Below are positions 21,196 through 21,894 of a stretch of DNA of 64,000 nt, in pieces. The translations under genes were made by a program, and so were the position numbers. The stretch is taken from the sequence record HE978309; one strand, given 5' to 3'. How positions within the stretch are numbered: the stretch's first letter is position 1; every line of letters starts with the position of its first letter. The notes beneath the pieces are model-generated. The model saw only the letters and a list, made by a program, of their open reading frames with translations, was not told the DNA's origin and did not search any database. Origin of the DNA: Enterobacteria phage GEC-3S.

Positions 21196-21894
21196 CTAAC
21201 CACGGGTATAGTGTTCCAGAACAACTGTCAGATGAATATATTCTAATAGATCTTTCCAAAAGTCAACATCTGGTTCTTCCGGCATACCGTTTTTCTTTGC
21301 CTCTTCACGCGCGAGTTTAACACGCTCGTAGAGATCTTTCAATTCTTCCCGCACATTATCAAAGGTTCTTTCTCCTAACTTACACGCTAAAATAGAAGAA
21401 CGTCGCGCGAGCGGGAATTGTAGATCACCTGTCTGGTAGATTTCAAGTAGCTGATAACCAACACGCAGAGCATGAGAAAGATCTTTCCAGTTACTGAAAT
21501 ACTTTTCCGATTTGGCTACCTGTTTCTTGAGATAACCAGACAAACCCCACATACCAACATGATAGAATTTATCGCGATGTGTTCGGATGTATTCCCATTC
21601 TCTGGAGGATTCGATCAACATGTTACTAGGCGCGTGCACCATGTCAATAGCGCCGATATCACCTTTACATGCCAGATTGATAAACCGTTTTAGACTGAAC
21701 ATATTAACGTCAATATCGTCTTTGGTGTTCTTGATCCCTTGACCGCTAGTGCTTTGGTCATAGTGTTCTTTCATCGATCCTAAGATAATTTCTTTCGCAG
21801 TCGGAACAAAGATACCACGATAATCTTTATCGGAATTTTCAGTATCAAGGCCGTATAAGTGAGATCCGAAGACCATTTTAACCATTGTATGCAT
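21196..21894 (-). CDS. nucleotidyltransferase-fold protein (pol-beta superfamily motif)
   Basis: GSHLYGLDTENSDKDYRGIF fits the GS...[DE]x[DE] nucleotidyltransferase signature; GAGGGT before ATG. Confidence 0.55.
   Translation of the reverse strand: MHTMVKMVFGSHLYGLDTENSDKDYRGIFVPTAKEIILGSMKEHYDQSTSGQGIKNTKDDIDVNMFSLKRFINLACKGDIGAIDMVHAPSNMLIESSREWEYIRTHRDKFYHVGMWGLSGYLKKQVAKSEKYFSNWKDLSHALRVGYQLLEIYQTGDLQFPLARRSSILACKLGERTFDNVREELKDLYERVKLAREEAKKNGMPEEPDVDFWKDLLEYIHLTVVLEHYTRG

Follow-up and report, generated by a model that had tools for sequence, protein, structure and literature searches.

Proteins of the RlaP family (Pfam PF10127, 'RNA repair pathway DNA polymerase beta family') are nucleotidyltransferases of the DNA polymerase beta (Pol-beta) superfamily. 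A role of phage members in restoring lost nucleotides to broken RNA before its ligation was predicted by comparative genomics, and the family was named RlaP (cited in PMC7824862). One such gene, nrdC.11 of Enterobacteria phage GEC-3S, is the subject of this analysis. It lies in a stretch of 64,000 nucleotides from sequence record HE978309, referred to below as the window, and encodes the Krischvirus orthologue of phage T4 NrdC.11, an RlaP-family nucleotidyltransferase of the Pol-beta type. The protein probably takes part in the repair of tRNAs damaged by host anticodon nucleases.

The first biochemical description of the family is a bioRxiv preprint of December 2025 by Carruthers, Fatma and Huang, in which the enzymes of Pseudomonas fluorescens (PfRlaP) and Pseudomonas aeruginosa (PaRlaP) labelled Escherichia coli RNA and neither DNA nor protein (PMC12776372). 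Both enzymes add one or two nucleoside monophosphates (NMPs), or their deoxy counterparts (dNMPs), onto RNA 3'-OH ends with little base preference and with a preference for Mn2+ (PMC12776372). In a cleaved-tRNA mimic, PfRlaP favours the broken 3' end over the acceptor end, and RlaP raised the aminoacylation of a tRNA from whose anticodon loop one nucleotide had been missing before ligation (PMC12776372). RlaP was proposed to be an antidote to RloC-type ribotoxins, which cut a tRNA and then excise a nucleotide, the missing nucleotides being restored before the ends are ligated (PMC12776372).

Family, orthology and fold of NrdC.11

The match of the window protein to known families is far beyond chance. 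Pfam PF10127 is matched with 53.6 bits against a gathering cut-off of 23 (E=3.4e-14), and the match is collinear, residues 7-191 falling on profile positions 24-198 of 249. A precomputed PF10127 match is present in all 120 homologues listed. By tblastn the protein was matched in 1722 phage records, mostly T4-like phages of enterobacteria, Aeromonas, Acinetobacter and Vibrio but also actinophages and others, and a HMMER scan of 1.84 billion representative proteins returned 3575 clusters at E<=1e-3. Other collections were less informative: the NCBIfam search gave no match to the protein, the PADLOC search just a noise-level CARF match (E=0.03), and PDB sequence searches with the single protein and with the family profile nothing relevant. 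Pfam NTP_transf_2 had no match in the window protein at E up to 1 and reached a sub-threshold score on the T4 orthologue (13.6 bits against a cut-off of 21).

Around the gene, 4 kb of sequence match Krischvirus genomes (RB49, Phi1, Cognac and others; 25 listed of 57 matching records) at 96.8-98.9% identity. The RB49 counterpart, RB49p098 (NP_891669.1), carries the name nrdC.11 and the product 'nucleotidyltransferase', and its protein is 99.6% identical to that of the window. T4 NrdC.11 (NP_049709.1, 336 amino acids) is an orthologue that aligns from residue 1 to the C-terminus (BLASTP E=1e-50, about 45% identity over the common parts). The two proteins have in common the Pfam family, the GS, DxD and D motifs and a C-terminal KxxxHxxR motif, and both genes lie on the early-gene strand, each with a terminator before or after it. 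The orthologous group of T4 NrdC.11, PHROG 388 ('nucleotidyltransferase'), was matched at E=2e-79 with the profile covered in two stretches.

The two genes differ in map position, since nrdC.11 of the window lies between vs.6 and regB whereas that of T4 lies between mobD and nrdC.10. The vs.6-regB interval of T4 is made up of vs.5, vs.4 and vs.3. An earlier reading of the window from its sequence only (hereafter the sequence-only reading) had named no T4 counterpart at this position. This is correct for the position as such, but the absence from T4 that it implied is not, as the orthologue is found 7 kb further along. T4 NrdC.11 was formerly labelled 'uncharacterized 38.9 kDa protein in the nrdC-mobD region', and in 2006 a nucleotidyltransferase domain was recorded in nrdC.11 orthologues (PMC1524935). 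The gene and its family are already known, the name nrdC.11 having been in use since the RB49 genome annotation, and a functional hypothesis has been published. The novelty that had been suggested for the locus, i.e. a stand-alone minimal nucleotidyltransferase with no T4 counterpart, does not hold. Many homologues of NrdC.11 in GenBank and UniRef are labelled 'thioredoxin' and one is labelled 'HNH homing endonuclease'. The former label probably spread from the gene name, because the protein has no thioredoxin domain.

The AlphaFold model of the window protein, computed with 33 homologues as input, has a mean predicted local distance difference test (pLDDT) score of 93.5 and a predicted template modelling (pTM) score of 0.89. 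It consists of an alpha/beta nucleotidyltransferase domain, with strands at residues 2-9, 23-30, 44-48, 61-67 and 93-96, followed by a helical bundle that presumably forms the side of the cleft binding RNA and nucleoside triphosphate (domain limits in Table 1). The Pol-beta catalytic set (G-S loop, DxD and a third conserved acidic residue) is present. In a set of 156 relatives that includes distant Bacillaceae sequences, G10 is conserved in all 156, S11 in 153, D22 in 155, D24 in 154, D60 in 150 and Q125 in 147; residue 62 is D in 153 and E in the other three, residue 84 is D or E in 153, and S21, N56, K137, H141 and R144 are each retained in at least 150. The model makes D62 a likelier third metal ligand than D84 because it stands at the head of the neighbouring strand 61-67.

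The sequence-only reading had placed an open reading frame with the motif GSHLYGLDTENSDKDYRGIF here and had assigned it to a minimal nucleotidyltransferase of the Pol-beta superfamily. The reading frame and the superfamily were rightly recognized: the motif corresponds to residues 10-29 of a protein of 232 amino acids whose GS and DxD residues recur in 153-156 of the 156 relatives and whose predicted fold is that of a nucleotidyltransferase. The word minimal does not apply to a protein of this length with a C-terminal helical domain of its own. The MNT proteins of HEPN-MNT modules are single domains of about 100-130 amino acids with a HEPN neighbour, whereas the window protein has two domains and its gene no adjacent HEPN gene. 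A HEPN ribonuclease motif (Rx4-6H) was also considered for the C-terminal domain and rejected, as the conserved order is H-x2-R (K137, H141, R144) and R107-x4-H112 is not conserved.

A Foldseek comparison of the model with the PDB returned the kanamycin nucleotidyltransferase ANT(4') (E=2e-5) and HalB (E about 1e-4), then 3c18, LinB and AadA. ANT(4') has the architecture of the window protein, a nucleotidyltransferase domain with a C-terminal helical (HEPN-like) domain. This shared plan, and the place of ANT(4'), LinB and AadA among the best matches, speak for an enzyme that transfers nucleotidyl groups to a small molecule or a protein, as do aminoglycoside and lincosamide nucleotidyltransferases and the MNT antitoxins that AMPylate HEPN toxins. 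Such an activity is nonetheless highly improbable. The template modelling scores (TM-scores) are low (0.38-0.46) at 10-13% identity, and ANT(4') and the related antibiotic enzymes (10-12% identity, TM-score about 0.4) act on small molecules and belong to another Pfam family. The characterized RlaP members acted on RNA and left E. coli proteins unlabelled (PMC12776372), antibiotic modification would be of no evident use to a lytic phage, and no HEPN toxin gene is found nearby.

HalB of the Hailong system (PDB 9dbh) synthesizes tyrosine-primed oligo-dA in host defence and belongs to a neighbouring family distinct from RlaP. Its identity to the window protein is 13%; no sequence-profile relationship between the two was detected and no HalA channel partner gene accompanies nrdC.11. 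It is distinctly unlikely that NrdC.11 is a HalB-like oligonucleotide synthase, primer-independent or protein-primed, which would make a decoy or replacement signal such as an oligodeoxyadenylate keeping a Hailong-type HalA channel shut, an idea akin to the signal mimicry of the sequence-only reading. Very unlikely, too, is a counter-defence enzyme with HalB-like chemistry that would serve no repair and would instead synthesize short oligonucleotides de novo or lengthen the oligonucleotide signals of host immunity. Were it so, a nucleotide-gated host effector would be held off or its signal spoiled, and the loss of the insert described below would mark a change of target in Krischvirus. Nucleotide-signal mimicry or depletion had been among the roles listed in the sequence-only reading; no support for it was found beyond the moderate fold resemblance to HalB.

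Two groups of RNA-directed enzymes complete the comparison. The crystal structure of PfRlaP, compared here by its description in the preprint only, shows the same two-domain plan with a cleft between the domains, and the conserved aspartates are found in both proteins. The superfamily to which RlaP belongs also includes class II CCA-adding enzymes and poly(A) polymerase (PF01743), nucleotidyltransferases that act on RNA 3' ends without a template. They differ from RlaP in their head-domain family and body, are not among the top fold matches, and attach either a defined CCA or a long tail, whereas RlaP attaches one or two nucleotides with little base specificity.

The insert module absent from the Krischvirus form

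T4 NrdC.11 contains an alpha/beta insert of about 105 residues (T4 residues ~131-240) that the window protein lacks. In the alignment of the two, a block of about 106 residues is found in T4 alone, between window residues 131 and 136; at the insert site 8 residues of the window protein face 112 of T4, the position being between the first helix of the C-terminal domain and the KxxxHxxR helix. The 150 best representative relatives are nearly all of 300-350 amino acids and were matched in two stretches, about six of them being short. A model of a long form (protein P0014; L002:3071-4081) shows a separate alpha/beta module at residues ~131-240. The module is laid out as a helix, two strands, a helix, three strands and a long helix, has conserved motifs of its own (YG.KGS near its start and YGER..A..N near its end) and is absent from the Krischvirus protein and from a few other lineages. 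The absence of these ~105 residues is the sole local peculiarity of Krischvirus nrdC.11.

In a neighbour-joining tree built on the common columns and lacking bootstrap support, the window protein and the short relative P0002 fall within the insert-bearing clade, and the other short forms elsewhere. The topology suggests that the insert was lost secondarily, in several independent events. P0002 is 57% identical to the window protein and is encoded at the same map position in the contig of a related phage.

The rarity of short forms (about six of the 150 best representative relatives) and the missing T4 segment might be taken to mean that the Krischvirus copy is a remnant inactivated with the loss of the module. 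This is extremely improbable. Across four Krischvirus genomes nrdC.11 shows 9-14 synonymous and 0-1 nonsynonymous changes, the ratio of nonsynonymous to synonymous substitution rates (dN/dS) being 0.023 or lower, and the short form is under strong purifying selection and is not decaying. Every catalytic and cleft residue is kept in a compact and confident model, the short length is that of the Pfam consensus, which is matched collinearly over profile positions 24-198, and of Bacillaceae members, and the sister lineage of P0002 keeps the short form in place. The sequence thus points to a functional gene with a predicted nucleotidyltransferase activity.

NrdC.11 and its proposed role in tRNA repair

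The favoured reading, to which a probability of about 0.6 is given, is that NrdC.11 is a template-independent RNA 3'-end nucleotidyltransferase that acts in trans with PseT and RnlA. First, a tRNA would be cut by a RloC-type anticodon nuclease of the host, which would also excise a nucleotide. PseT would then remove the 2',3'-cyclic phosphate and phosphorylate the 5'-OH, leaving 3'-OH and 5'-phosphate ends; NrdC.11 would add a nucleotide back onto the 3'-OH where one had been excised, and RnlA would seal the 3'-OH/5'-phosphate nick. The chemistry fits, because the product of RlaP ends in the 3'-OH that a 5'-phosphate ligase such as Rnl1 needs (PMC12776372). By analogy with the Pseudomonas enzymes, the phage protein would have the same activity and damaged tRNA would be its biological substrate. 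On the phage side, the present analysis establishes that the protein belongs to the family and has the predicted fold of a nucleotidyltransferase, that its catalytic set is intact, that the gene is under purifying selection, and that RB49 encodes pseT and rnlA and has no tRNA genes in the scanned sequence. Modification of RNA, another of the roles listed in the sequence-only reading, agrees with the in vitro activity of the family as described for the Pseudomonas enzymes (PMC12776372).

The partners assumed here are encoded by RB49, whose genome contains pseT (polynucleotide kinase-phosphatase), rnlA (RNA ligase 1) and a second kinase-like gene. The sequence-only reading had termed the protein stand-alone and had seen no HEPN or cyclase gene next to it. 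The neighbours of nrdC.11 agree with both remarks as far as adjacency goes, but in a wider sense the protein does not stand alone, its likely partners pseT and rnlA being located elsewhere in the near-identical RB49 genome. ARAGORN detected no tRNA genes in the window (1-64000) or in bases 1-160,000 of the 164,018 of RB49. T4 carries tRNA genes. With none in the scanned sequence, the Krischvirus phage would depend on host tRNAs, which it could repair but not replace.

Gene order in relatives links the family to RNA maintenance in several instances. The Pseudomonas rlaP genes lie within rtcB-rlaP-rtcA operons, whereas the phage gene is not beside a ligase. The closest relatives in cellular genomes contain the T4-type insert, and some of these, at 32-38% identity, are encoded in cca-rlaP-rtcB clusters (two loci, L040 464-4305 and L046 4559-8600). 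These Campylobacterota clusters comprise, on one strand, a CCA-adding enzyme (PolyA_pol and HD domains), an insert-bearing RlaP of 339 amino acids and RtcB. Of 97 neighbour proteins from 27 loci of such relatives, 4 have the CCA/poly(A)-polymerase head domain and 3 are RtcB, more than for any other Pfam family. In Gordonia phage Kudefre an RNA ligase gene is followed, five genes later, by the homologue, and a tRNA cluster comes directly after it. The Kudefre run (L084 1-5922) includes RNA ligase, phosphoribosyl pyrophosphate (PRPP) synthase, nicotinamide phosphoribosyltransferase, the RlaP homologue and six tRNA genes, and so joins nicotinamide adenine dinucleotide (NAD) salvage with RNA and tRNA maintenance functions. 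The homologue of mycobacteriophage Faith1 has no RNA-repair neighbours. The linkage to RNA ligase is genuine in one part of the family, to which the clade nearest to the phage proteins belongs; it is not universal, and there is no such adjacency in the window.

The proximity of a CCA-adding enzyme gene in Campylobacterota also bears on another role at RNA 3' ends, outside anticodon-loop repair, namely the rebuilding or extension of damaged tRNA 3' (CCA) ends, or the tailing of other RNAs, such as fragments produced by RegB or host RNase toxins, whose stability would thereby be altered. It is in line with this role that RlaP labels many E. coli RNAs in vitro, i.e. rRNA-sized species, full-length tRNA and single-stranded oligonucleotides (PMC12776372), and that regB lies four genes downstream of nrdC.11 in the window, in the same orientation. 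It is considered unlikely, however: PfRlaP prefers the break over the acceptor end, addition stops after one or two nucleotides and hence amounts to no tailing activity, and the proximity of regB is not conserved, T4 nrdC.11 being 7 kb from that gene.

Several points weigh against tRNA repair with PseT and RnlA. NMP addition has been assayed for the Pseudomonas enzymes only, which form cluster 1a of the PF10127 similarity network, and T4 NrdC.11 belongs to cluster 5 (PMC12776372). The supporting source is a preprint with aminoacylation as its only functional test (PMC12776372). As the added base is untemplated, repair would be correct in just a fraction of the tRNAs. The rnlA and pseT genes of RB49 are located about 75 kb from nrdC.11, outside the window, and no RNA ligase or kinase gene adjoins it. 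Linkage to RtcB is found in just 3 of the 27 relatives' loci, and 60 neighbours of the distant Bacillaceae relatives include no RtcB or CCA families and show no conserved context. In structure, the protein is best matched in the PDB by HalB, which synthesizes DNA oligomers and is no RNA-repair enzyme. The substrate range may also differ from that of T4 NrdC.11, because the Krischvirus form lacks the module of nearly all its closest relatives. Finally, T4 tolerates laboratory deletion of nrdC.11-mobD.3 (PMC9825161), which fits an accessory role and yields no phenotype.

Gene neighbourhood and significance

The features of the locus are collected in Table 1. The nrdC.11 reading frame is a genuine gene, preceded by a Shine-Dalgarno sequence; a ribosome-binding site is recorded at the equivalent place in the independent annotation of the sister phage Makalu_002.

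Table 1. Position of nrdC.11, its parts and its surroundings in the window.
Feature	Position	Strand	Description
nrdC.11 coding sequence	21196..21894	minus	ATG at 21894, stop at 21196; 232 amino acids; RlaP-family (PF10127) nucleotidyltransferase, orthologue of T4 NrdC.11
Motif GSHLYGLDTENSDKDYRGIF	21808..21867	minus	residues 10-29, from the translation; GS loop and DxD metal ligands
N-terminal domain	21550..21894	minus	residues 1 to ~115; Pol-beta-type nucleotidyltransferase domain with G10-S11, D22-x-D24, D60/D62 and D84
C-terminal helical domain	21199..21549	minus	residues ~116-232; conserved Q125, K137, H141, R144, K172
Insert junction	21490..21504	minus	residues 131-135 (EKYFS); site of the ~105-residue alpha/beta insert of T4-type NrdC.11, absent here
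Shine-Dalgarno sequence	21902..21906	minus	GAGGG, 7 nucleotides 5' of the nrdC.11 ATG
Promoter candidate	21925..21953	minus	sigma-70-like, TTGGCT-17-TATGAT with upstream TG; 9/12 consensus positions; overlaps the terminator tail
Terminator-like hairpin	21937..21971	minus	intrinsic type, from a terminator scan; 10-bp stem with 5 G-C pairs, then T-run; between vs.6 and nrdC.11
vs.6 (GrcA-like)	21981-22397	minus	Pfam Gly_radical, E=1.5e-16
First downstream reading frame	20980-21174	minus	64 amino acids
Second downstream reading frame	20738-20998	minus	86 amino acids
Third downstream reading frame	20344-20679	minus	111 amino acids
Tk.4 homologue	18402-18857	minus	Macro-domain protein, Pfam E=6e-7
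Acb1 gene (57B of RB49)	29090-29560	minus	Pfam PF23474, E=1.5e-51

The upstream neighbour had been called GrcA-like in the sequence-only reading, and its glycyl radical domain confirms this; it corresponds to T4 vs.6. The gap of 86 nucleotides between vs.6 and nrdC.11 is filled by a strong terminator-like hairpin and then a promoter-like site, and the Makalu_002 annotation also has a terminator there. The vs.6-regB region contains 7 terminator-like sites against 2.3 expected from shuffled sequence, while promoter-like sites in a consensus scan number 18 against 12.3 expected. With so many such sites expected by chance, the promoter candidate, which comes from the consensus scan only, is a weak one; it could possibly be the start of an nrdC.11 transcription unit.

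The three open reading frames downstream of nrdC.11 have no Pfam match. They are mutual paralogues (BLASTP E=5e-11 and 3e-4) with a common pattern around 'GYI.DD.G..I...L...C.HL.G..W.L'. Their identity with vs.3, vs.4 and vs.5, the occupants of the T4 interval, was considered and rejected, the proteins being unrelated on comparison.

Two further genes of the window touch on RNA repair or its annotation. The Tk.4 homologue belongs to the Macro domains, which act on ADP-ribose derivatives, including those arising from 2'-phosphate removal in RNA repair (PMC7824862). The gene designated '57B, RNA ligase' in the RB49 RefSeq record was considered as a nearby ligase partner and rejected. Its product is Acb1, a 2H phosphodiesterase directed against the cyclic oligonucleotide-based antiphage signalling system (CBASS), and the label 'RNA ligase' is an annotation error.

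Homing endonucleases seem drawn to the junction upstream of nrdC.11. T4 has mobD there (L089 3430-4209), in a Krischvirus-like contig vs.6 and the short RlaP gene are separated by an HNH/NUMOD4 gene (L086 3951-4547), and in several other phage records an HNH or homing endonuclease gene adjoins nrdC.11. The window has just the spacer with terminator and promoter candidate.

Nucleotide excision by RloC-type nucleases defeats simple religation. If the proposed role is correct, phage RlaP would complete the classic T4 tRNA repair by Pnkp and Rnl1 against nucleases of this kind, and would thereby supply a third step in a textbook arms race. The Krischvirus enzyme, with its 232 amino acids, high-confidence model and lack of the insert, and with its origin in a phage whose scanned sequence contains no tRNA genes, would be a convenient minimal protein on which to test it.
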